Origin: Actinobacteria bacterium UBA4426
GTDB taxonomy: Bacteria > Actinomycetota > Actinomycetes > S36-B12
Direction of reading: 5' to 3'
DNA length: 64,000 nt
NCBI GenBank assembly: GCA_002390705.1
Contig: DGQA01000005.1
Span: 52,623 to 116,622, forward strand
Under the pieces are notes generated by a model. The model was not told the DNA's origin. It saw only the letters and a program-made list of their open reading frames with translations, and did no database searches. This document shows positions 3,077 to 17,478 of this stretch, one piece after another (positions within the stretch are counted from its first letter, which is position 1; the number at the start of each line of letters is the position of its first letter). The translations under genes were made by a program, and so were the position numbers.

Positions 3077-3268
3077 ATGAGTGAAGAAGTCAAGAATCCC
3101 CGGTCTGACGCTGACGAACAGCGCGCCAAGTTCAAAGCCGCCCTCGATGCAAAAAATCACAAGCCCGGCCACACTGGTTCGCATCCCCATGCGACCGGCG
3201 CAGCAGCGAAGGACCCTTCCGGCCGGTCAGGTGGCAAACGCGAATTTCGCCGCAAGAGCGGGGGCTGA
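3077..3268 (+). CDS. DUF5302-like small basic protein
   Basis: 63 aa. The N-terminus has a KFKAALDAK motif and the C-terminus has KREFRRKSGG. This pattern is characteristic of the actinobacterial DUF5302 family. Confidence 0.6.
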   Translation: MSEEVKNPRSDADEQRAKFKAALDAKNHKPGHTGSHPHATGAAAKDPSGRSGGKREFRRKSGG

Positions 3269-3421
3269 CCACCTCAGGCTAGGTCCCGAGATTTTTGGCC
3301 ACCGGTCTTCGAATCGTTTACCGAAGTAGATCAATTCGCCACAATTCGCTCGATATCTCTCACGTATGCACAACTAAGAAATGTGTCGTCCGCTTCACAT
3401 GAAGGAGTTGTTCAGTGCGCT

Positions 3422-3459
3422 CCCACGGTGGCATCGTGCGTGGCAGAGTCTGCCGATCA
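3422..3459 (-). repeat. Copy A of a 38-nt structured repeat abutting a stop codon
   Basis: It is 34/38 identical to 7228..7265. On the minus strand it reads TGA-NN-GGCAGACTCTGCC-ACGCACG-NTGNCACCGTGGG. It contains a GGCAG/CTGCC hairpin and an overlapping CCACG/CGTGG hairpin. Confidence 0.8.
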
Positions 3460-5865
3460 CGGAGAAACCCAGCCGAATAGTTCAGAGGGGTTTGTGATCA
3501 GGGCGCCACTAGGCAAAATCTCCGACTCAAAGTACGTCCCCGCCGGGATGCCGCTCGGTAGAGCGAGAGATAGCGTAAATTCACCGTCACCCATTTCGTC
3601 AAATGAGGCATAACCTCTTCTCCCTTCTATATAAACGTGTGGATTCAGTTCAAGAAACTGCTCTTCATATTCCCGGGGTATGTTTTGGTAGACAAACATT
3701 GCCTCAAAACTGGCATCAAGCACATCTTCGGCGGCCCGAATAGTCCAAGTTAACACACCGCCGGCCGGAGCCGCAGCTTGCGCCTGGGTAATACGAGCCG
3801 TCGGGATCGAAACACCAATCGGCAACACGATCAAGCGAGACTCACTGTCCGCGACACTCATCCCTGACAAGGGGTAAAAATTTACTTTTGCCAATGTTGG
3901 GCCAGTGGATGTGAAAGGCATCGACACAGAAACCGGTATCGATGCGAATCGCGAACCAGGAGTTACCGTTCCCACACCAGACTGGGGCTTGACCACATCA
4001 CCTCCGTGAGAAATAACATAGGCGAAAGTGCCACCTTCGCCTGCGGGGGTGTCAAGAGAGACTCGAACCTGGGAAGTGCTCTCACCCGGGCCCTTCGTCA
4101 CGGTCAGATCTGTCAGAGAGGCGGCTGGCAGCAACTTGGTCGACTTTGGCCGATTCGGATTGCGTGCGCTGACATCGAGGAGCCAAGCGTCACCTGGGCC
4201 CGACGCACGTAAACCCACGTGCGTGATCTTTTTTAAATTAAGAGGTCCCGTTTGTGTTAGCTCACTCACGATGCTCTGGGGCCACATGCGAAACGCAAGT
4301 CCGTGGGAAGTGACTGCGTGAGACTTAACAGTTGGTTGCAGTTGCGCCTCACTACCTGATTCGTCGCGAAGAACAAGAACTAGATCGGCGGGAGCTGGCG
4401 AAGAGACAACTACACGAGATGACACGTGTGTCGCGCCCGACAAATCTTTTACTTCATCAAACGAAGCCCAAGCCGTGCCGGCGCCTTCCCATTGCGTTTG
4501 CACTGCGAATCGTGTCGGAAGCAAAAGCGGAGGATAAGCGCCATTGGTCAGCCATGCGGTTGCCTGATTTGCATTGCTAAATTCAACCCCTACATTTGCA
4601 AAGCCTGAGGCACACACTTTCTGTATCGAACTCAAGTTGCTGCCGTTGCATATGAACGTCTTCGCACCTGACGCCTCTAAGTCAGTATCTGGCGTGGGTA
4701 CAAGAATCAAGGAGTCCGGACCACCGAAACTCGATGATCGCATGTCAATACCAAGCTTCTTTGTGGCCGAAGGGACTTTCCCCGACCCGTCAAAGAAGCT
4801 CACGCCAGAATTCTTCCCACCTTGAATCATTCGGTTGAACGCTCGCAGGTAGTCGCGGCCAACAATTCTTTCTTCCCCGGGTGTCAGCCGCAGCTCCGCT
4901 TTACAAGACCCATCGACTGACGGATCGGCGTACACGCGCAGTGCATCATCAGCGCCGGTGTTGGAAATTGATGATCCAGGTGTCCACTCAGTGTTGAGAT
5001 AATTATGGTTGCCGCCGGGCATCCAAACTGCAGACTGCAGCTGCGCCCAATAACCGTATAAATCTCGCGCACGATCCACATAGCTTTGACCAATTTGGTT
5101 GCTTACATCGCCATCACAAGCTGGTAGCAGTGTTGCGACTGGGATATTGCCAACAGCCTGCTGACTGTTATTTACGGGAGCAAAATTAAGCACACCTTTA
5201 ATGCTGAGCCTCGAATCCCGAGAGCCATTTATAGATTGTGCAGCGTGCATCACACCTTCACCTCCGCGACTGTGCCCCATTAAGACAGTACTTCGGGAAT
5301 TAACGTGACCTACAAGTCGTGATCCGTAGCCTTGCTGCGATCCTGAATTAGCCGCCGCCAGCGCACCAAGGTGATACTCGACCAAAGCAGCACGCGCGGT
5401 CATTTCTACGGCATTATTTGCGTTTGCCTGACCATTGATGCCGTTTGCGCTGATGCTAATCACGATGTTCCCCTCGCGGGCGATGTCCTTAGCCAAATAC
5501 TGATACCCCATATGAGACGGCACGGGAGTGAGTTCCGCTGGATCGGAACACCAAGCGGGTACAGGATTGGGTACGAGATTGGGTACATCGCTACTGGCGT
5601 AGCAAAAGTCATGCTGGCCATGCAGCAGAAGAACAACCGGATGGCTCCCAGGTGCCACGCGGCCTTTCTGCGTCGGTACGGTCACGACCGCGACATCTTC
5701 AACCGGCAAAGGCAACCCCACATCCACAGCATTCCAGCCGTTTTCAATTTCAAAAACCATGGTGCCCCACGTTTCCCGTGCGTTGGCGGAAGTTGAAACC
5801 GATCCAAAACCCAGAAGCGCCGCACACAATGTCAGACAGAGAACTTTTCGTAAATTAACGGCCAT
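3457..5865 (-). CDS. Secreted alpha/beta hydrolase (lipase/esterase-like) with a large C-terminal region of unknown function
   Basis: It has a signal peptide (MAVNLRKVLCLTLCAALLGFGSVSTSANA). It has a GHSRGG nucleophile elbow, followed by ACDGD and GGNHNY as candidate Asp/His triad members. About 450 aa at the C-terminus carry no motif I recognise. Confidence 0.6.
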   Translation of the reverse strand: MAVNLRKVLCLTLCAALLGFGSVSTSANARETWGTMVFEIENGWNAVDVGLPLPVEDVAVVTVPTQKGRVAPGSHPVVLLLHGQHDFCYASSDVPNLVPNPVPAWCSDPAELTPVPSHMGYQYLAKDIAREGNIVISISANGINGQANANNAVEMTARAALVEYHLGALAAANSGSQQGYGSRLVGHVNSRSTVLMGHSRGGEGVMHAAQSINGSRDSRLSIKGVLNFAPVNNSQQAVGNIPVATLLPACDGDVSNQIGQSYVDRARDLYGYWAQLQSAVWMPGGNHNYLNTEWTPGSSISNTGADDALRVYADPSVDGSCKAELRLTPGEERIVGRDYLRAFNRMIQGGKNSGVSFFDGSGKVPSATKKLGIDMRSSSFGGPDSLILVPTPDTDLEASGAKTFICNGSNLSSIQKVCASGFANVGVEFSNANQATAWLTNGAYPPLLLPTRFAVQTQWEGAGTAWASFDEVKDLSGATHVSSRVVVSSPAPADLVLVLRDESGSEAQLQPTVKSHAVTSHGLAFRMWPQSIVSELTQTGPLNLKKITHVGLRASGPGDAWLLDVSARNPNRPKSTKLLPAASLTDLTVTKGPGESTSQVRVSLDTPAGEGGTFAYVISHGGDVVKPQSGVGTVTPGSRFASIPVSVSMPFTSTGPTLAKVNFYPLSGMSVADSESRLIVLPIGVSIPTARITQAQAAAPAGGVLTWTIRAAEDVLDASFEAMFVYQNIPREYEEQFLELNPHVYIEGRRGYASFDEMGDGEFTLSLALPSGIPAGTYFESEILPSGALITNPSELFGWVSP

Positions 5866-5975
5866 GATAGGAGAGGTTATCCCAGACGGGCTAGGTCGGC
5901 GAGCCGAACTTGAGCTTGCCAAATTCTTCAGCAGGGGGAATGTGATGCCAAGATAATGTTTCTACTCTGAGCAGC

Positions 5976-5997
5976 CCTTAGTGGAGATGCCGGGAAT
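5976..5997. repeat. att-like direct copy of the tmRNA 3' end
   Basis: ccttAgtggagatgccgggaat matches 7808..7829 (ccttTgtggagatgccgggaat) at 21/22 positions, in the same orientation. Confidence 0.8.
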
Positions 5998-6014
5998 GCA
6001 GTTGCGATAGTGGA

Positions 6015-7061
6015 CTAGATCACGCGACCTACGCCGCTGAATCGCTCTTTGTACCAAGGGCCGAGAAAGTCAATAATCTCCACTCCATCGCTCGGGTTTG
6101 AGGCACTGACCATCTTGCCGCCGCCAATATAAATCGCTACGTGGTGGGCCCCGCGGCCAAAATAGAACACCAAGTCGCCCGGTCGAATGTTGCTTACCGG
6201 AACACGTCTGGTCTGGTCCCACTGAGTGAAACTAAGTGGGGTAAGTCCTACTCCACTTTTACCCCAGGCAGCGGTCGTGAGTTTCGAGCAATCCCAAGAG
6301 TCAGGTGGTCGGGCGCTAAACGAGTAGGGCTCGCCAACCTGTGCCAACGCATACTGCACCGCCAACCGTGCACGTTTACTCCCCGAGGAACCCGCCGAGC
6401 CAGAATTAAGCCGACTGAGTTCTTCTGCTGCAGCACCAATCTGAGACTGGCGACGATCGCCGGCAATTTTGCTCAGCCGTTGTCGTTCCTCGGCCTGGAG
6501 CCCAGAGAGAACATCTTCTGATGCCGACAGTTGTGCATCCACTTCTTTTTGAGCAGATCCCATTTCGCCACGCACTTGCTGAGCTCTCGCTTCACGCTCG
6601 GTTATCTCTGCCTCAGTTTGGGCTATTCGAAGGCGTGCGGTCCGGGCTTGCACTAATTGTGCGAGTTGTGTTTGTTCGAGTTGACCCATCGTCGCGGCTT
6701 GAGCTAAGAATTCATCGGGATCTTCTGCCAAGAGAAGTTGGAGGGTGGAGTCGATACCACCGGAGGTGTACGCCGCTCGGGCAATGTCATTGATCCTAGA
6801 CATAGCGACACGCATTTCGGCGCGCTCACGATCGGCACGTTTCAAAATTGAGTTAAGGTCGGACTGAATTTCTTTCAGTCGCACTTGCGCTCGGTGCACC
6901 AACTCAGCCGCTGCACCCGCCTCCATTTGAAGTTCACGCACTTGCTGCGCCACCTGCTGGAGGTCTTTGCGGGGGGCCGCGACAGATATTGACAAAGAAC
7001 CGAACAGTAGAGCCGAAACGGATACGCATACTCCGAACGGAACAGCGAATCTTTTTTTCAT
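6015..7061 (-). CDS. NlpC/P60 (C40) peptidoglycan endopeptidase with N-terminal coiled coil (RipA-like)
   Basis: The start is at MKKRFAV with a signal peptide. A long Q/E/A/R-rich coiled-coil region follows. The C-terminus has NlpC/P60 motifs (DCSKLT...HVAIYIGGGKMV). Confidence 0.8.
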   Translation of the reverse strand: MKKRFAVPFGVCVSVSALLFGSLSISVAAPRKDLQQVAQQVRELQMEAGAAAELVHRAQVRLKEIQSDLNSILKRADRERAEMRVAMSRINDIARAAYTSGGIDSTLQLLLAEDPDEFLAQAATMGQLEQTQLAQLVQARTARLRIAQTEAEITEREARAQQVRGEMGSAQKEVDAQLSASEDVLSGLQAEERQRLSKIAGDRRQSQIGAAAEELSRLNSGSAGSSGSKRARLAVQYALAQVGEPYSFSARPPDSWDCSKLTTAAWGKSGVGLTPLSFTQWDQTRRVPVSNIRPGDLVFYFGRGAHHVAIYIGGGKMVSASNPSDGVEIIDFLGPWYKERFSGVGRVI

Positions 7062-7227
7062 GCCTGGGAGCGTAACATTCCTGTAAAAATTTGGATGAGA
7101 ACGCCGTGACGGTTGTGTGAGCTTGCTACGGGACGGCATACTCATTCCCATTGTTCCATTTTTATGGATCGAGCTGCATTAATCATTCTGGGCTGCCAAC
7201 AATTGGTTTTCGCTGAGGAAGTCATTA

Positions 7228-7265
7228 CCCACGGTGCCAGCGTGCGTGGCAGAGTCTGCCACTCA
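7228..7265 (-). repeat. Copy B of the 38-nt structured repeat abutting a stop codon
   Basis: See 3422..3459. It lies immediately 3' of the TspO stop codon and within the 5' leader region of the NlpC/P60 gene. Confidence 0.8.
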
Positions 7266-7772
7266 CCCGTTCAGGTGCAGGTATCCCCAGGACAACGACG
7301 CAGCCAGCGCCACCCAGATCTGGTAGGGCAGCAAAAGTGCACCCAACAGCGGGCGGGTCAAGAACGCGATGATCACGATCGGAACAGTGAGAACCGCCGC
7401 GGAGCTGAGGGCGATCGCTGCCGGCGCAAACTCGTGTGGCACGTAGAACAAGTACGCCCACGCGAGCGCCGAAGCGATTGAAGCAGCCAAAAAGAAAATC
7501 AGCACCCCGACGCGTGGCGGCACTGCCCGCCACACCACCACCGATGAGACCACTGCCAGCGCCACGAAGTTGTAGGTCCAGATCAACCCGAACACCGAGG
7601 GTGGCGGCTGCCAAGGTGGTTGTTCAAGACTTCGGTACCAGGATCCGTCGGTACCCACCCACACCCCGGAGAGCACTGCGTAGGTGATTATTGCTGCGAT
7701 AACTACCCCAATGGCAAAAAGCCGCCAAGCGGTGCTGGGACCAGATAATGTTCGCTCAGGCATCTGAACCAT
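7263..7772 (-). CDS. tspO: TspO/MBR family tryptophan-rich sensory protein
   Basis: It has the WYRSLEQPPWQPP and FGLIWTYNF motifs and five predicted TM segments. The track ORF extends to 7916 but would run into the tmRNA. ATG 7772 or ATG 7763 are the plausible starts. Confidence 0.8.
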   Translation of the reverse strand: MVQMPERTLSGPSTAWRLFAIGVVIAAIITYAVLSGVWVGTDGSWYRSLEQPPWQPPPSVFGLIWTYNFVALAVVSSVVVWRAVPPRVGVLIFFLAASIASALAWAYLFYVPHEFAPAAIALSSAAVLTVPIVIIAFLTRPLLGALLLPYQIWVALAASLSWGYLHLNG

Positions 7773-7807
7773 TCTTCCGTGAAGACAACCGAGCGGTTGA
7801 TGGCACA

Positions 7808-7829
7808 CCTTTGTGGAGATGCCGGGAAT
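7808..7829. repeat. att-like core at the tmRNA 3' end (partner of 5976..5997)
   Basis: It covers the last 16 nt of ssrA plus 6 nt beyond it. Confidence 0.8.
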
Positions 7830-8181
7830 CGAACCCGGGTCCGTGCAGGATTTTTCCGTCCTTCTACGTGTGTAGCTGCGCTGTCGCTTTCTCGGCCCCC
7901 GCACTACGTGCAGCACTTTGCGGTGGCAGCCCAGTTACTGTTTGGTTTTCCGCCTGTCTCCGTAACCGAGACGATTGGTGAGTCCCCTAGCGACGTCAGA
8001 CCCCAATTCGAGGACGCATTGGGCTGACGGCTGATTTATCGGTTACGCAGCGAGTGCGTAAGCGTCAGCAGACTGCTTAGTTTTGGCAGTTATTTGTTTT
8101 TAAGGGTGTTTAACGAGATCACCTTAAATTCTCGACACGCTTCTCCGGTTAAACGACTGAACGTCGAAACCTTTCATCCCC
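7814..8181 (-). ncRNA. ssrA: tmRNA (SsrA)
   Basis: On the minus strand the 5' end is GGGGATGAAAGGTTTCGACG. The 3' end is GGTTCGATTCCCGGCATCTCCA, a tRNA-Ala-like acceptor with G3:U. The terminal CCA is not fully encoded (CAA follows). The internal tag frame at 8043..8087 reads GCC AAA ACT AAG CAG TCT GCT GAC GCT TAC GCA CTC GCT GCG TAA, giving AKTKQSADAYALAA*. smpB is adjacent. Confidence 0.95.
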
Positions 8182-8196
8182 TATTTACTTATAGCC

Positions 8197-8673
8197 CTAT
8201 TCTAACCCCTTCGACCGTCTTCCTACTAATCGCTGGGTTTCACGCTTGGATTCACGCTCAGCAATTGCTTGCCGCTTGTCATAGCTCTTGCGCCCACGGG
8301 CGACAGCAATCTCTACTTTCGCATAGCCGTCTTTGAAGTAAAGAGAAAGTGGAACCAGGGTCACACCGGTGTCTTTGGTGGCTTGTTCAATCCGCTTAAT
8401 TTCATCCTTGCGCAGTAGAAGCTTGCGGGCTCGCCGTGGTTCGTGATTAGTCCAGGTGCCCATGGAATATTGCGGAATGTGAATCTGACGCAGCCAAATA
8501 GCACCGTTCTCGTACTGAGCGAAACCATCAACCAAACTCGCTCGGCCTTGCCTCAGAGACTTCACTTCAGTGCCGGTAAGGACCATCCCCGCTTCGTAAA
8601 CGTCCTCGATCGAATAGTCGTAACGAGCCTTTTTATTTTGGGCGATCAACTTTTTGCCGGTTTCACGTGCCAT
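8197..8673 (-). CDS. smpB: SsrA-binding protein SmpB
   Basis: 158 aa. It has the typical N-terminus [34 protein letters not shown]. Confidence 0.95.
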
Positions 8674-8739
8674 AAGCTGCTGCCTCCCATTCGGGTGTGC
8701 TCGGGATCGGGCTCACACCCAGCACCGCATTGGGCACCT

Positions 8740-10020
8740 TCAGCACGGCACCGCTCGCATTGCTGCGCCGTACCACCCCATGGGATCATACGGGGTTCCG
8801 TCGAGGCGGGTTTCAAAATGCAAATGAGGTCCGGTGGACCAGCCTGTTGAACCGACCTTGCCGACTTCTTGCCCGCGGTTGAGGCTCTGACCAACTTTTA
8901 CGCTGGTCGAAGATAGATGGGCGTAAAAAGTTGTTAAGCCACCACTATGAACAACGAGCACCGCATTGCCATAAGGCCCTCCGCGCGTAATTGTCGCCAC
9001 CGAACCTTGATCCGCAGCCTGCACCTTCGTACCGCTTGGCGCCCCAATATCAATTCCAGTGTGACAGGAATTGTGGCCGTAGATCGGGTGAATGCGCGGT
9101 CCCACACCCCCGCCTCGTGAACGACCCGGCAGCGGCCAGACGAGCGATCCACTCGGTGACTGGGCATTTTGCGGCGCCGTACCCTGGGCGGCAGCCTCCC
9201 TCGCGGCCGCGACGGCCTTCCGCGCAGCCAATTTGAGTTTGCGCTCTTCACGCTTAAGTCGCTCGTAACGATTCTTGATCTTCCCCTTGTACTTTTTTGC
9301 CGACTTAACAGCTTGGCGCTTGTCCTTACGCAGCTGCACCACGGCTCGTTGCTGTTTCTTAGCTGCTGTGAGTGCTACCCGAGATTTACGTAACTCGCGA
9401 TCCGCCTGTGCTTGTGCCGTCGTTGCCTTTTCCGAAAGTGCAGTGAGTTTGACTTCTTGCATTTCTGCGTCGGCACTTGACACCAAAATTACCCGCTCCA
9501 TGCTTTGCTGCTCGCGACTGACGTAATTGACAGCTACCATCCGGGCCGTAAAGTCAGCTGGATCTTGCGCAGACATCAAAATGGCAACCTCGTTGAGGGG
9601 TCCCTGTTGGTACACAGCTCGGGCAACATCTTCAATGTCTGCCCTTTGTGCATCCAATTTGCGCTCAAGTCTCGTGAGTGCTCGGGTGCCCAAAATCAGT
9701 GAACTCTTTGCGTATTCGGAGTCGACGCGCGCCGAATCTGCAACAGCAGAAGCTTCTTTCGATTCACGCAAGGCCGCTTTCTTGAGAATTTTGGCTTGCA
9801 CCAACGAACGCTGGGCCTTGGCTGCAGCATTGACTGCCTTTTGCAATTTGGTATTAGCTTTACCCAAAGCTTGGGTCGTCGACTTTAGACTTAATTGAAC
9901 CTGACTCTGCTCACTCTTAATTTCACCAAGGTCCGCGGCATGCGTGGGTGCAACAAGTCCCGCGCTCGCCATGAGGGCGCAGGCAAGTGAGACGGCAATA
10001 CCGGTGCGGGAGGGGACCAC
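8740..10020 (-). CDS. M23 family metallopeptidase with coiled-coil N-terminus (EnvC-like partner of FtsEX)
   Basis: It has a signal peptide and a long coiled coil. The C-terminus has HTGIDIGAP...GPHLHFE, the M23 zinc motifs. It lies directly downstream of ftsEX. Confidence 0.85.
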   Translation of the reverse strand: MVPSRTGIAVSLACALMASAGLVAPTHAADLGEIKSEQSQVQLSLKSTTQALGKANTKLQKAVNAAAKAQRSLVQAKILKKAALRESKEASAVADSARVDSEYAKSSLILGTRALTRLERKLDAQRADIEDVARAVYQQGPLNEVAILMSAQDPADFTARMVAVNYVSREQQSMERVILVSSADAEMQEVKLTALSEKATTAQAQADRELRKSRVALTAAKKQQRAVVQLRKDKRQAVKSAKKYKGKIKNRYERLKREERKLKLAARKAVAAAREAAAQGTAPQNAQSPSGSLVWPLPGRSRGGGVGPRIHPIYGHNSCHTGIDIGAPSGTKVQAADQGSVATITRGGPYGNAVLVVHSGGLTTFYAHLSSTSVKVGQSLNRGQEVGKVGSTGWSTGPHLHFETRLDGTPYDPMGWYGAAMRAVPC

Positions 10021-12903: not shown

Positions 12904-13320
12904 TTACGGGGCGTAATCCAACCTCGCCGAGGCGCTCACCTCAACGTGATCAAACGCTAACGCGTCAAAAAAGGTCAACCGCAATGGCGCGTTCAGGGTG
13001 ACGAGAACTGACTTACCGTTGGGTTCAACCCTAAGAGCGGTGAGTGTAATTTCTGAACCTTCAGTCATGACCTTTGCGTGCGTTCTAGCGATGTTTTCAA
13101 CTTGTGCTGAATTAAGCCTCGTAGATTGGGTAGCTCCGGTTCGGTAGTACTGCTCAAGGTCTATTCCTTGGGCTCCAGCAAGAGCAATTGAGTCGGCAAC
13201 TGATTGAAGCTCCCGTTGTTGTATGAAAGCACCGGCGCTATCGGTTATTACCGCGAGTGCCAGCAAACACACTCCAATCATGCCAATACCGAGAAGCATG
13301 ATGCTGCCTTCGTCTTTCAC
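12904..13320 (-). CDS. TadG/TadE-like pilus assembly (pseudopilin-like) protein
   Basis: 138 aa with an N-terminal hydrophobic segment after EGS. It is the last gene of the Tad cluster and overlaps the previous gene by 4 nt. Confidence 0.55.
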   Translation of the reverse strand: MKDEGSIMLLGIGMIGVCLLALAVITDSAGAFIQQRELQSVADSIALAGAQGIDLEQYYRTGATQSTRLNSAQVENIARTHAKVMTEGSEITLTALRVEPNGKSVLVTLNAPLRLTFFDALAFDHVEVSASARLDYAP

Positions 13321-13760
13321 GGCCCGCCCGCCTCGCGGTATTGATCAACCAAGAGCGAGGCTTGCGCAGTTACGGGCATAGTAATTACTTCCGAGGACCC
13401 CCAACGGGGCACAAATGGCAGTGGGACTTGGGCCGTGATTTCCATGGAGACTTTTCCACCCGGTGTGAGACAAGAAATGTGATCGCATGTTGTGAAAATT
13501 TCCGGTTCCGCATCTGCGAGGCCGTGGTCCGCAAACGCTTGTTCCACAGCAACGACTGCTCTCTGAGTTCCACTGGAATTGCTTGTGCTGGTAACAAAAG
13601 CTCGAACACTTTCGCGGGCTGCCTGGTGGGTAGCAAACTGCGCCGCATTGAGGGTCAAAACGGTTATTGCGATGTAGATTAGCGGAAGAATAATCGCGAC
13701 CCCAACAACAATAAACTCAATTGAAGCGCTCCCTTGATCGCTGTTACTCCGCCAGTGCAT
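13317..13760 (-). CDS. TadE-like protein
   Basis: It has the N-terminal motif QGSASIEFIVVGVAIILPL, matching the TadE-family xGxxxVEF plus TM pattern. Confidence 0.7.
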   Translation of the reverse strand: MHWRSNSDQGSASIEFIVVGVAIILPLIYIAITVLTLNAAQFATHQAARESVRAFVTSTSNSSGTQRAVVAVEQAFADHGLADAEPEIFTTCDHISCLTPGGKVSMEITAQVPLPFVPRWGSSEVITMPVTAQASLLVDQYREAGGP

Positions 13761-14145
13761 GACCGGTGAGTCTCATTGACGTTGGACCGTAAAAACCAAT
13801 CAAAGGTAATTCAGTCTCGACCACAACTGCGAACATTTTGTTCTCCCCTTCGGTGACCTGTGATGCACGAATGCTTTGCACGGCCGTTCCAGCAAAATTC
13901 CTCTCCAAGATGGACCTGGTGCGTGACTCTGCTCGAGTGAGATCCCCGTCCACCAAAGCAGCGACCCGCGCACCCTCAATTGCAGCGCCCGTGACCACAC
14001 TGCGCACATGGATAGCCAGCATCAACTGAAGTACCGCTAACGCAACAAGCATGAGTAGCGGGGCAACCAGTGCAAATTCAACGCTTGCGTTCCCGCTATC
14101 GCCCTGCAGTCGTGTCCTAACAAAGCTGCATTTATGCGGAGACAC
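13744..14145 (-). CDS. TadE-like protein
   Basis: It has a GTG start and the N-terminal motif DSGNASVEFALVAPLLMLV (TadE family). Confidence 0.7.
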   Translation of the reverse strand: MSPHKCSFVRTRLQGDSGNASVEFALVAPLLMLVALAVLQLMLAIHVRSVVTGAAIEGARVAALVDGDLTRAESRTRSILERNFAGTAVQSIRASQVTEGENKMFAVVVETELPLIGFYGPTSMRLTGHALAE

Positions 14146-14311
14146 TCGAGATCGCTCGATCCAGGATTCCGGTGAGTTGGTCGTCAGCGATGAGCCAGAT
14201 GGCCGTGACCAGTCCCGCCGTCATCACCGCAACAAGCACCCAGCCGGGGACATCGCCACGCTCATTAGCCAACTTGGTGAATAGCTTGCCTAACACTAGT
14301 TCGATATTCAT
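14132..14311 (-). CDS. Small pilin-position protein (Flp/DUF4244-like), not in the supplied ORF track
   Basis: My own translation is MNIELVLGKLFTKLANERGDVPGWVLVAVMTAGLVTAIWLIADDQLTGILDRAISSVSA (59 aa). GGAAAGG lies 6 nt upstream of the ATG. It has a single TM helix. It sits between tadC and the TadE genes, which is where Flp pilin genes are found. Confidence 0.6.
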   Translation of the reverse strand: MNIELVLGKLFTKLANERGDVPGWVLVAVMTAGLVTAIWLIADDQLTGILDRAISSVSA

Positions 14312-14347
14312 ATTTTACCTTTCCTTGATATATGTATTTTGTTGTTG

Positions 14348-15286
14348 TTAGGGGAGAAGAACTTCGAGACCACGCATTGCAGGAAATAACGCAATCACGA
14401 TTACGGTCGGCAGGATCAAGAACACGACCGGGACCAACATGACGACGTCTTTTTTCCCCGCGAGCTCAATTAACTGTTGCCTTTGCTCACTACGAGCGTC
14501 GGCTGCTTGAGCTCGTAGAACGCCGCTCAATGGGGTCCCCCGCTCAATCGCAATCACTAAGCCGGAAACAAAACGCTCCACTGAGCGAGAACCCGTACGT
14601 TCGGACATGGCAACTAGCGCATCGATAAATGCGGAGCCCGCCTTAACATCGGCAACGCAAGTTTCTAATTCATCTGCCAGGTCTCCATGGCCTAAATGTG
14701 CGATTCGAGTGAGTGCGGCAAGGGATGTCTCTCCAGCTGTAACCGAAAAAGCCAGCAGTTCTGCGAGATCAGGGAATTGCGAGTCAATTCGCTCAACCCG
14801 CTTTCTTCCCATTCCGGAAACATGTTTGTCGTGCAGAAGGAAACCAAGTACGATCCCCAGAGCCACCGTGAAGGCAAGTGCAATCGGATTCGAGCCACGC
14901 CTAATGGACCACATACCGATCACAATTCCTGCAACTAGTCCCAGTGCTGCCCACGTAATTTGCTCCCACCGATAGCGGCTCAAATCAGTTGTGCGATCCC
15001 CCGTAGTCTTGCCGGCCTTTTGCAATCTCTCAATCAATTTGTCGGCGCTGCCAAAACGAGTGATCCACCCAGAGTCAGGGCTGAGTAACTCTCGAAGTAC
15101 GGATAGAACCCCCACCTGGTTTTTGATTGGGATCAGCGCAGTTAGCTCCGGGATGCTGCCGTGAGATGCACGCATCACCCTCATTGAAATAGTGATCGGG
15201 GCCAAGGAACGGTACCGGGAAATTACGCTCAAGAAACCAGCGGCGGCAATGAGCCCGATGAGCGCCCCAACAATTGGTGCGTTCAT
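14348..15286 (-). CDS. tadC: Type II secretion system F family protein (TadC-like)
   Basis: 312-aa polytopic membrane protein with a T2SSF-type architecture. It is translationally coupled to tadB. Confidence 0.7.
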   Translation of the reverse strand: MNAPIVGALIGLIAAAGFLSVISRYRSLAPITISMRVMRASHGSIPELTALIPIKNQVGVLSVLRELLSPDSGWITRFGSADKLIERLQKAGKTTGDRTTDLSRYRWEQITWAALGLVAGIVIGMWSIRRGSNPIALAFTVALGIVLGFLLHDKHVSGMGRKRVERIDSQFPDLAELLAFSVTAGETSLAALTRIAHLGHGDLADELETCVADVKAGSAFIDALVAMSERTGSRSVERFVSGLVIAIERGTPLSGVLRAQAADARSEQRQQLIELAGKKDVVMLVPVVFLILPTVIVIALFPAMRGLEVLLP

Positions 15287-16143
15287 GCCGGCACCGCGCA
15301 GACAACCCGAGACTCGATGGGTAAAGCGCCAATGCGCAACATGAGTCGATAGGCGATGAATGAGATCCCTGCGGCACCCAGCAATACAACGGCTCCAAGT
15401 CCAGTTCGAAAGGCTGCAACCGCATCAGGTCTAGTGCACAACATGGCCAAAGTGAGCCACGGGGCTGCGATTGACATCCGGGCAGCAGAAATGGTCCAAC
15501 TTTGCCGAGCTTCAATGTCACCCCTGGTGAGCGCATCACTTCGTAGTAGGCCGCTCAGAGTTCGCAGCACGTGACCCAAATCTGTTCCCCCCACTTCATG
15601 TGCAATGCGCAATGCGGAAATTACTCGATCAGCAACCGGGTCGCTGAGACGTTCTTGTAACGCGTTCAGCGCCTGTGCAAATGACCCGGTTGACCGGTAA
15701 TAATCGGAGAAGTGAGCAAAGGCATAGCGCAACTGAGCGGGCCCATTTTTTGAAAGGTCAGCTACAGCTTCGGGGAGAGACATGCCGGCCCGCACGGAGG
15801 ATGCGAGCGAATCAACTGCGTCAGGCCAACTTGTGCGAAGGGCTTTTGACCGCAATCTGGCGCGACGTTTAACACTAAAAATTGGAATGAAGGCCGTGCC
15901 CACAGCGGCCATTAGAGCCACGATCGGGAGTGAAGTAATAATCAATGAGATGGATCCCGTGGCCAATCCAGCAATTGCCATGGTCGTGTACACCGTTCGA
16001 GCCGTCACATTGGCCAACCCAGCGGATTTCACCAGCGCTCCCACATAACTTTCTTTGGGAGCTCTCGCTGGTCGGTTACTGCTCAGCGCCAATACGATTA
16101 AAAGAGCGGCCACGCCAACACACAGGCCCACGACAGCACCCAT
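15283..16143 (-). CDS. tadB: Type II secretion system F family protein (TadB-like)
   Basis: 286-aa membrane protein located between tadA and tadC. Confidence 0.7.
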   Translation of the reverse strand: MGAVVGLCVGVAALLIVLALSSNRPARAPKESYVGALVKSAGLANVTARTVYTTMAIAGLATGSISLIITSLPIVALMAAVGTAFIPIFSVKRRARLRSKALRTSWPDAVDSLASSVRAGMSLPEAVADLSKNGPAQLRYAFAHFSDYYRSTGSFAQALNALQERLSDPVADRVISALRIAHEVGGTDLGHVLRTLSGLLRSDALTRGDIEARQSWTISAARMSIAAPWLTLAMLCTRPDAVAAFRTGLGAVVLLGAAGISFIAYRLMLRIGALPIESRVVCAVPA

Positions 16144-17366
16144 TAGGCCACTCCACGCAGTGGATTCTGCGCATGCAGAATGCTAGACAATTCAAAGCCA
16201 CGTGCTGCAAATCTTTCCGAGTGAGGTGGGTAACCACTCTTGCGGGTTAGCCCTGACCCGTCATCCGTGAAGATCGTGCTCATCTCGACAATATTGTTCT
16301 CAACGCGACCGGTCAGACCTGAAATTTCAGTGATCCTGCGCTGCCCACTTGGATCACTCGCCGCATGGATCACTAAATCCACCGCACCCGCCACCGTAGG
16401 AACAACGAAGTCACCGGGGATATTGACTCCCGCTAATAATGGGAGCGTGCACAGTTTGGTGACTGCTTCACGAGCGCTGTTTGCGTGCAATGTAGATAGA
16501 GACGGCATTCCAGAGTTCATGGCAATGAGCAAATCAAGGCATTCGCCCTGGCGCACCTCACCAACAATCAATCGAGTGGGGCGCATGCGCAGTGCTTCGC
16601 GCACCAGCCTGCGTAATGGGATCTCCCCTGTCCCCTCCAAACTAGCGTCCCGAGTCTGCATCGCAATCCAGTCAGGATGATCAATCCTGATTTCGAACAC
16701 TTCTTCGCAACTAATCACCCGCTCATGTTTAGGGACACAACCCAAGAGCGCATTAAGCAATGTAGTTTTGCCGGCCTGGGTTCCCCCCGCCACTACTGTG
16801 TTGAGTCCACATTGAACGGCGGCGTCTAGGAATATTGCCGCTTGCTGATTGAGTGTGCCCAATCCGACTAGGTCAAAAATTGATTTTGGCCGGACCACAA
16901 ACCGTCGAATATTTACCGACCAGTGTTTTTGAGTTACCTCTGGAATAACCACGTGGAGCCGGCTGCCGTCGGAAAGAACCGCGTCAACAAATGGTTGCGA
17001 AAGATCTAGCCGTCGACCCGAGGTGCGCAACATCCGTTCAACTAGATCACGCACCTGTTCAGGGGTAAGAACGATCCCGGTCAATTCACTTCTGCCGCCA
17101 CGGGCAATAAAGACTCGGTTAGGTTCATTTATCCAAATTTCCTCAACCGTTGAGTCATCGAAAAATTTTTGCAATGGGCCGTAGCCGGAAATCTGGTGAT
17201 GCACCTCAAGTACCAAAGCGGGTACGTTAATCAGCGATCCACCGGCGAATAGGTCCGATGCGCATTCTTGAATCAGGTGAAGTACCCGCGCACTATCCTG
17301 GACCGGATCAAGGTCAAGGGTCCTAATTTGTTCACGCACGCGCGATTCAACAAGCACTGCATCCAT
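16143..17366 (-). CDS. tadA: CpaF/TadA family secretion ATPase
   Basis: It has Walker A GGTQAGKTT, the Asp box and Walker B (LIVGEVRQGE), and a His box, consistent with the VirB11/CpaF family. Confidence 0.9.
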   Translation of the reverse strand: MDAVLVESRVREQIRTLDLDPVQDSARVLHLIQECASDLFAGGSLINVPALVLEVHHQISGYGPLQKFFDDSTVEEIWINEPNRVFIARGGRSELTGIVLTPEQVRDLVERMLRTSGRRLDLSQPFVDAVLSDGSRLHVVIPEVTQKHWSVNIRRFVVRPKSIFDLVGLGTLNQQAAIFLDAAVQCGLNTVVAGGTQAGKTTLLNALLGCVPKHERVISCEEVFEIRIDHPDWIAMQTRDASLEGTGEIPLRRLVREALRMRPTRLIVGEVRQGECLDLLIAMNSGMPSLSTLHANSAREAVTKLCTLPLLAGVNIPGDFVVPTVAGAVDLVIHAASDPSGQRRITEISGLTGRVENNIVEMSTIFTDDGSGLTRKSGYPPHSERFAARGFELSSILHAQNPLRGVA

Positions 17367-17478
17367 GTGATTCCCCTTTTATCTGCGCGCCGTATTTTGT
17401 GTGAGTTGCGCGCGTTCAGGGTAAGTCGAATCAGGACATTAAATACAGTGGCGATTTTCTCACTGTGGATAACTCCGT

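Follow-up and report, generated by a model that had tools for sequence, protein, structure and literature searches.

How did a second copy of the 3′ end of ssrA, the gene of transfer-messenger RNA (tmRNA), come to lie in the same orientation beyond the two genes that follow it in Actinobacteria bacterium UBA4426? The two genes, tspO and an NlpC/P60 endopeptidase gene (nlpC), are bracketed by the two copies in the 64-kb stretch of DNA analyzed here (hereafter the window). A preliminary description had treated them as a single cassette without an integrase, flanked by attL/attR duplications at a classic integrase attB. We compared the locus with other ssrA loci, designated L001, L081, L132 and so on. 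The repeat proved to be genuine, copying the tmRNA gene's 3′ end at a displaced position, and the locus is an additive island at ssrA, of a known kind. This flexible island has probably grown by repeated position-specific insertions at the ssrA end, with the repeat as a scar within it.

The target of the insertions, ssrA, was placed by ARAGORN at 7813..8181 on the minus strand (tag peptide AKTKQSADAYALAA) and by Rfam RF00023 at 7811-8181 with 145.6 bits. The 17-mer GTGGAGATGCCGGGAAT, which forms the end of ssrA, was found without mismatch at 5981-5997 and at 7813-7829. No third copy was present elsewhere in the window with 2 mismatches allowed, and 100 shuffles gave 0 matches. The 22-nt same-orientation repeat of the preliminary description (5976-5997 and 7808-7829) was confirmed at 21/22; the 16 nt of ssrA assigned to it became 17–19 nt, varying with the placement of the 3′ end. 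Identity extends to 24/27 between 5971-5997 and 7803-7829, and shuffled windows reached at most 20/27. The proximal copy (7803..7829, minus strand) consists of the last 17 nt of ssrA (7813-7829) and 10 nt of flank. The distal copy (5971..5997, minus strand), with 17 nt exact, is the displaced 3′ end. On the RNA strand the repeat reads ATTCCCGGCATCTCCAC, exact at 5997-5981; it begins within the T-loop, between TTCG and ATT, and extends ~10 nt beyond the 3′ end. The island adjoins the intact target gene and has a direct repeat of the gene's 3′ end at its far boundary, and the identity block runs from the T-loop through to the 3′ end. Sublocation classes of such blocks were reportedly defined by Williams in 2002.

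The distal copy was found at the same place in at least nine independent contigs from different samples and assemblers (L082, L083, L090, L116-L119, L122, and L089, the last with 1 mismatch), so it is not an assembly artifact. At ~57 more distant Actinomycetota ssrA loci used as controls, no second copy of the locus's own ssrA 17-mer was present within ~10 kb at ≤2 mismatches. The short length of the repeat is all that speaks for a chance match or an artifact; the shuffles, the independent contigs, and the control loci refute that explanation, to which we give practically no credence. All six 17–20-nt ssrA-end copies in the clade, the window's and five others, have the same T-loop base as their start, a regularity that speaks for a site-specific enzyme. 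The exception to this length is one 33-nt copy in L087.

Within the 1.8 kb that separates the copies, tspO encodes a TspO/MBR membrane protein of 166 aa (7263..7763, minus strand, alternative start 7772; TspO_MBR, E = 1.6e-17). The endopeptidase gene (6015..7061, minus strand; NLPC_P60, E = 1.3e-17) occupies a segment of ~1.2 kb (5998..7189, minus strand) that has no recognizable ends of its own. Neither gene has a match to a recombinase family, which bears out the earlier statement that the bracket holds these two genes and no integrase. Beyond the distal copy lies the gene of an 802-aa secreted protein (big802; 3457..5865, minus strand) with a weak PETase-like alpha/beta-hydrolase match.

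In this population the ssrA 3′ end is still an active insertion hotspot. Among strains whose SmpB is identical, the only differences are downstream of ssrA, and every joint lies at the tmRNA end. Besides the window type, ssrA-tspO-nlpC-big802, there are strains with the order ssrA-B1-B2-tspO, strains with module B1 alone (L117, L087, and L088, whose contig stops inside B1), and strains with module B2 alone (L089, L122). B1 (7.1 kb) carries a MacB-type ATP-binding cassette (ABC) transporter, an HlyD-like protein, a response regulator, and a kinase; B2 (2.4 kb) carries an esterase-like secreted protein. After the last module, every strain type continues with the window's own ssrA flank (aaaggtgtgccatcaacc...), and the window is therefore the empty site for both B1 and B2. 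Two further ssrA-end copies, with one mismatch each, were found in the sister-species contigs L101-L104, for which L105 is the matching empty site, and in L131 (TspO 83% identical) tspO stands alone between two ssrA-end copies. Presence and absence at exact repeat boundaries were seen for neighboring modules (B2 and the L101 islands), not for the bracket. Contigs of L001 and L106, from separate assemblies, end at ssrA's last base, which is consistent with strain heterogeneity there.

Two sister species (SmpB 94% and 92%) have both flanks in common with the window, namely, prfB-ftsEX-M23-smpB-ssrA to the left and DUF5302/folP-like/trmB/S51/PEPCK to the right. The interval from ssrA to DUF5302 is filled in these species with toxin-antitoxin, AbiE, glycosyltransferase, and other genes, and the enclosed genes of the window are absent at the same locus in close relatives. 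Because the sisters differ completely over this interval, the variable stretch spans ~3269-7812 and includes the gene of the 802-aa protein, which is absent from the sister species, L121, and L087. As this gene is distal in the stacking order, it would be older, in agreement with the earlier suggestion that the secreted hydrolase might belong to a second, older insertion. None of tspO, nlpC, and the 802-aa protein was found downstream of ssrA in the more distant loci compared. The left flank prfB-ftsE-ftsX-M23 peptidase-smpB-ssrA is kept down to ~70% SmpB identity. The top SmpB matches are metagenome-assembled genomes (MAGs) labeled Candidatus Nanopelagicales or Actinomycetota.

Variation within the stretch does not respect the bracket. 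A 39-nt hairpin repeat, with two copies only in the window (35/39 identical) and none in the sister species, lies directly 3′ of the tspO stop codon (copy a, 7228..7266, minus strand) and directly 3′ of the stop codon of the 802-aa protein (copy b, 3422..3460, minus strand). RNA folding of this repeat was no better than that of shuffles. In L121 and L087, tspO is followed by an a/b hybrid of the repeat and then by DUF5302. Both loci lack a 3.8-kb stretch with nlpC, the 802-aa protein, and the distal ssrA copy. The crossover points within the 39 nt are unlike in the two loci. Neither locus has an ssrA-end copy beyond tspO, so the simpler interpretation is that both arose by deletion from an ancestor resembling the window. 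The loss of nlpC together with the distal repeat and the 802-aa protein, by way of the 39-nt repeat, contradicts the description of the bracket as one cassette.

The tspO gene also has ends of its own inside the bracket. A right terminal inverted repeat with its subterminal block (GGGCTGCCAACAATTGG ttttcgctgagg) lies at 7190..7218 on the plus strand, past the terminator region of tspO, and its tip points to nlpC on the other side. It matches the right end of a 260-bp miniature element in L132 at 27/29 and is the sole strong match to an end of that transposon family in 64 kb, with 0 in shuffles. Directly after the tmRNA end, at 7809-7793, is a degenerate left inverted repeat, GGTGTGCCATCAACCGC, with 11/17 identity to the element's own right end. 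These two ends place tspO in a transposase-less miniature element of 620 bp (7190..7809, minus strand) bounded by inverted repeats, which probably arrived by transposition. The element has no target-site duplication, with ACAAA on its left and AGAAT on its right; the right flank is not a clean duplication, suggesting that the neighboring DNA has changed since. Of the earlier alternatives, a decayed island or a minimal cargo, the decayed island stands in spirit, and the single cassette does not, as tspO has its own ends. The tspO start lies 40–50 nt past the tmRNA end. No promoter-like or terminator-like site was found between the two (window 7764-7812), so tspO may be read through from ssrA.

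Another trace follows the distal repeat directly, namely, a decayed transposon left end (GGGCTGCTCAGAGTAGA; 5961..5977, minus strand). Here the ssrA copy is followed by TAA and then by GGGCTGCT..., the exact 8-nt tip of the family repeat (12/17 overall). This tip points to an old joint between the ssrA end and an element left end, located before the 802-aa protein. A promoter-like site (5923..5951, minus strand; consensus match only) follows the distal repeat and precedes the 802-aa protein.

The family to which these ends belong was found as five elements in four lineages, with 17-nt inverted repeats GGG(T/C)TGCTAACAATTGC. Four clean insertions duplicate 5 bp, consisting of the discriminator A and the next four bases. 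B1 is flanked by ACAAA in L117 and L081, with the window as the empty site. The 260-bp miniature of L132 also duplicates ACAAA, after which comes the flank native to the 92% sister. A 771-bp helix-turn-helix (HTH) element in L101 duplicates ACCAC, with no supporting context found, and a 1.4-kb element in L011 duplicates ACGAC, for which L015 and L016 are empty sites. Because the position is fixed and the duplicated bases differ, the enzyme must read the tmRNA gene, not the duplicated bases. Tn7 at attTn7 is another site- and orientation-specific element. L008, and perhaps L013, also has a similar left end after ssrA. The 7-kb ABC/two-component module has two alternative ends (L081 17893-17986, L087 17828-17915), either the transposon right inverted repeat with ACAAA or 33 nt of the ssrA 3′ end; its last ~90 nt differ between the two loci, though both sides are homologous.

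The fifth element is in L134 (SmpB 96%; contig FLOH01000187.1), a sister-species contig in which an intact 555-aa open reading frame (ORF) adjoins the same left end. The 504-bp left end common to B1 and B2 holds a C-terminal remnant of this ORF, which resolved a 115/142-aa ORF at the island left end that had no Pfam, plasmid, or phage match. The 555-aa protein, whose contig was examined only up to the start codon, matches the IS5 family (E = 3.5e-4) and DDE_Tnp_1_6 (E = 0.033) weakly. It has an R-x2-V-E-x2-Y-x2-I-K motif, which we take to be typical of the IS5/DDE_Tnp_1_6 superfamily, and no relatives were found in PDB, plasmid, or viral searches. This protein would be the family's transposase. 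A metagenome search with the conserved left end returned 3 loci only, with no integrase, and a 23-nt match of the element left end in a viral contig was dismissed since it did not extend beyond 23 nt. Our tentative proposal is that Nanopelagicales-like Actinomycetota harbor a DDE-type transposon family that targets the last bases of the tmRNA gene, inserting in one orientation at one position and duplicating 5 bp whatever the bases. Its transposase-less miniatures would carry single genes or small operons (tspO, HTH, ABC with two-component genes) and build the variable island, and the 17–20-nt copies may come from a second end type.

No recombinase Pfam family was detected in any ORF of ≥150 aa in the 64-kb window, and all such ORFs are housekeeping. 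No integrase was found in ~12 island variants from three species (precomputed Pfam) or in the window. In the large island, a 429/464-aa ORF at the far end was first suspected to be an integrase and proved to be an esterase-like secreted protein. The sole mobile-element enzyme found at the ssrA 3′ end in the clade is DDE-type, judged by the weak matches of the 555-aa gene, and the integrase attB mechanism first put forward was not supported. An integron cassette array was rejected, as there is no IntI and no attC and the repeated unit is the tmRNA 3′ end.

The empty site of the bracket was sought as ssrA joined to the sequence left of 5976, a check that the preliminary description had proposed. 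The exact pattern GTTCGATTCCCGGCATCTCCNNNAAGGGCTGCTCA had no match in Joint Genome Institute (JGI) metagenome contigs, and no such joint occurred among the ~45 contigs read. The joint of ssrA to big802 is predicted to read ...GGTTCGATTCCCGGCATCTCCAC(A/T)AAGGGCTGCTCAGAG, and the circle joint ...CTATCGCAACTGC-ATTCCCGGCATCTCCAC-AAAGGTGTGCC. In the search for attP, the core plus AAGG matched only two AT-rich phages with their own tmRNA genes among the viral contigs of IMG/VR, and a viral search with the distal junction and the 39-nt repeat returned nothing. These phage contigs (L091 5457-5753, L092 4512-4957) have permuted tmRNA genes whose 3′ ends share the 22-mer ATTCCCGGCATCTCCACNAAGG. As in a cis-mobilizable element (CIME), the bracket has attL/attR-like flanks and no recombination or transfer genes. 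Accretion with other modules was seen at this site, none of them with an integrase, and no integrase-bearing partner was found.

We favor an additive island in which each newcomer at ssrA would push older modules outward from the gene. The bracketed DNA would then be a composite of the 620-bp tspO miniature (7190-7809) and the 1.2-kb nlpC segment. The distal repeat would be an old junction of ssrA end and element left end, now situated before the 802-aa protein. These layers appear decayed and mostly fixed in this species, with no recombinase encoded in the window. Present change would come from new insertions at ssrA and from deletions by way of short repeats. Homologous exchange, for which the strongly conserved ssrA would be the anchor, probably also carries whole layers from one lineage to another. 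The order of events would follow from the stacking. As for the enzyme that duplicated 17–20 nt, we infer two candidates; it could be the integrase of lost or decayed elements, as in the Dehalococcoides/tycheposon model, or a second transposon end type.

Several points weigh against this account. The clean insertions give 5 nt and do not by themselves explain a 17–20-nt repeat. The tspO element has a left repeat of only 11/17 and AGAAT at its right flank instead of the expected ACAAA, and the matches of its putative transposase are weak. With no joint of ssrA to 5976 seen, we infer the insertion of the bracketed DNA as a unit, and its excision was not observed. Composition shows no sign of foreign origin. 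The GC content of the bracketed DNA (0.56 vs 0.535) lies at the 95th percentile, due only to tspO, and its tetranucleotide distance at the 83rd, so the deviation that the preliminary description had proposed to compute did not appear. Every comparison was made with metagenome contigs and MAGs, and these loci were gathered for containing ssrA, so that site specificity was judged on them alone.

It is unlikely that tspO and nlpC form one attL/attR cassette left by a tyrosine- or serine-integrase element and perhaps mobilizable in trans, in the manner of a CIME. The repeat does span the T-loop to the gene end, as expected of integrase identity blocks, and six copies with the same start base argue for a site-specific enzyme. 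Tandem stacking with other modules was observed. In Dehalococcoides, 15 of 31 ssrA islands have no integration module, and these were put forward as CIMEs (PMC3146451). Yet such a cassette would have to be reconciled with the absence of an integrase from the island variants and the window and with the failure to find an empty-site junction or, in viral contigs, a matching attP. Moreover, tspO has its own transposon ends inside the bracket, and the observed polymorphism crosses the bracket at the 39-nt repeat. If no integrase was ever involved, the DDE family itself may have made the 17–20-nt copies, through long target duplications or through a second end type that carries a target copy. Some IS4-related families (IS1634, IS1182) reportedly produce long, variable duplications. 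B2 has the family left end. At its right end, homology to the right end of the family covers at least 35 nt, and ATTCCCGGCATCTCCACAAA comes directly after it, repeating the 20 nt in front of the B2 left end; the right end of L101 island 2 and the L131 junction look alike. However, the four clean insertions give 5 bp, not 20, and the last ~12 nt of the B2-type right end are unlike the canonical tip. The distal copy in the window is itself preceded by the nlpC stop codon and 17 nt with only a faint resemblance to any element end. We therefore regard this explanation as improbable.

Some observations point to recombination in ssrA. ssrA differs at ~4/369 nt between species in which the flanking DNA is ~90% identical. 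Up to the 5′ part of ssrA, L121 (JGI 3300025880) shows 98.9% identity with sister species L107; beyond it, starting at the 39-nt repeat, L121 shows 99.9% identity with the window. The switch lies inside ssrA, in which L121 also has a few private single-nucleotide polymorphisms. In L087, the right flank is only 92% identical and the left flank 98%. The distal copy could on these grounds have arrived within foreign DNA, brought in by recombination that was anchored in ssrA and was either homologous or homology-facilitated illegitimate, with no site-specific enzyme in the lineage. L121, however, could be a chimeric assembly as well as a recombinant between species. Joints formed at random by illegitimate recombination would not share the T-loop boundary in six junctions, and the model moves scars between genomes and creates none, which makes it a very unlikely origin of the repeat. 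The additive island with the repeat as a scar within it remains our preferred account.

Homologs of the enclosed genes were also considered as pointers to a donor. A 78% TspO homolog has a core context beside enolase, and NlpC homologs of 71–80% identity lie at unrelated loci; these contexts were rejected as donors because the loci are unrelated. In L123 (2696-3884), which comes from a relative of higher GC, a 297–321-aa tyrosine recombinase gene comes after that of a 79% NlpC homolog. The recombinase gene is bounded by 32-nt inverted repeats, looks invertible or mobile, and is unrelated to ssrA.

The conserved left flank comprises smpB (8197..8673, minus strand) and the M23 peptidase, ftsX, ftsE, and prfB genes, reaching 12868. 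The first gene of the conserved right flank is the DUF5302 gene (3077..3268, plus strand), which the sister species also have. Two cell-wall hydrolase genes, the M23 peptidase (8740-10020) and NlpC/P60 (6015-7061), stand on either side of smpB-ssrA, beside ftsEX. Both proteins have a long N-terminal region without a Pfam match, and hydrolases built in this way act as partners of FtsEX in other bacteria. In both sister species, a 318-aa DUF4436 gene separates the M23 peptidase gene from smpB, where the window (8674-8739) has only 66 nt. Farther out, at ~13000-17409, the window contains a tad/flp pilus cluster with a CpaF-like ATPase, two TadB/C-like proteins, Flp, and TadE-like proteins. This cluster is missing in L081 and L084-L087, in which the two sides meet at a 13-nt overlap.

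The closest known counterparts are the ssrA islands of Dehalococcoides (McMurdie et al. 2011), 16/31 of which have a serine-recombinase module (DsiB) (PMC3146451). As at our locus, they lie in tandem directly downstream of a single-copy tmRNA gene in a streamlined genome, are marked by ~20-bp direct repeats of the ssrA 3′ end, and are a major source of strain differences (PMC3146451). About half of the Dehalococcoides islands are without an integration module (PMC3146451), and no recombinase was found at the locus described here. Unlike in Dehalococcoides, part of the traffic here would be carried by an inverted-repeat DDE-type transposon with 5-bp duplications, and the modules are much smaller (0.26–7 kb). 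In fGI-2 of Methylophilaceae (PMC10872708) and the islands and tycheposons of Prochlorococcus (10.1101/2020.12.28.424599), the last ~20 nt of a tRNA-type gene likewise recur in the variable island. Newcomers stand next to the gene and older modules are pushed outward, with remnants and partial tRNA copies marking old events (PMC10872708; 10.1101/2020.12.28.424599). Tycheposons carry tyrosine or serine recombinases and replication modules (10.1101/2020.12.28.424599), none of which were seen here, and our case differs from both in its host, a Nanopelagicales-like actinobacterium, and its target, ssrA. Given that the structure matches the Dehalococcoides, Methylophilaceae, and Prochlorococcus cases, the repeat itself is an ordinary scar of a known kind. 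Islands beside tRNA and tmRNA genes are already known to hold most of the strain-to-strain differences of genome-streamlined plankton. The present locus is an unusually legible small example from a freshwater/estuarine actinobacterial lineage, with layers of 0.26–7 kb ordered by their scars.

Islander-type tDNA islands (Hudson, Lau & Williams 2015) are similarly recognized by an intact target gene and a displaced 3′ fragment marking the ends (PMC4383910). Their definition demands a tyrosine integrase gene inside (PMC4383910), which this island does not have. Island finders relying on integrases would miss the whole island. CIMEs and their accretion (ICEberg 2.0) resemble the locus in having att-like flanks, no recombination or transfer genes, and stacking at one site (PMC6323972; PMC3146451). 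Unlike for CIMEs, neither an integrase-bearing partner nor an excision product was found here.

The less ordinary part of the locus would be the tmRNA-homing DDE family with its gene-carrying miniatures, as it appears from metagenome contigs and a weak family assignment. No earlier description of such a family was found in the literature searched. If the proposal is true, part of the island traffic is carried by a transposon that recognizes the tmRNA end, not by integrases, and its miniatures carry ordinary-looking genes such as tspO. Such islands would then have a new means of growth, and a naturally occurring DDE system would insert position-specifically at a universally conserved single-copy gene. 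The nearest parallel is the IS1202 family at dif/pdif, whose DDE-type elements keep a set distance and orientation to a host sequence that is conserved, have terminal inverted repeats, and duplicate 5 bp (PMC10132070). Unlike the IS1202 family, the putative family described here targets the tmRNA 3′ end, its candidate transposase has a weak similarity to the IS5/IS4 superfamily, and most of its copies are miniatures or carriers of cargo, which includes tspO, an HTH gene, and ABC transporter and two-component genes.

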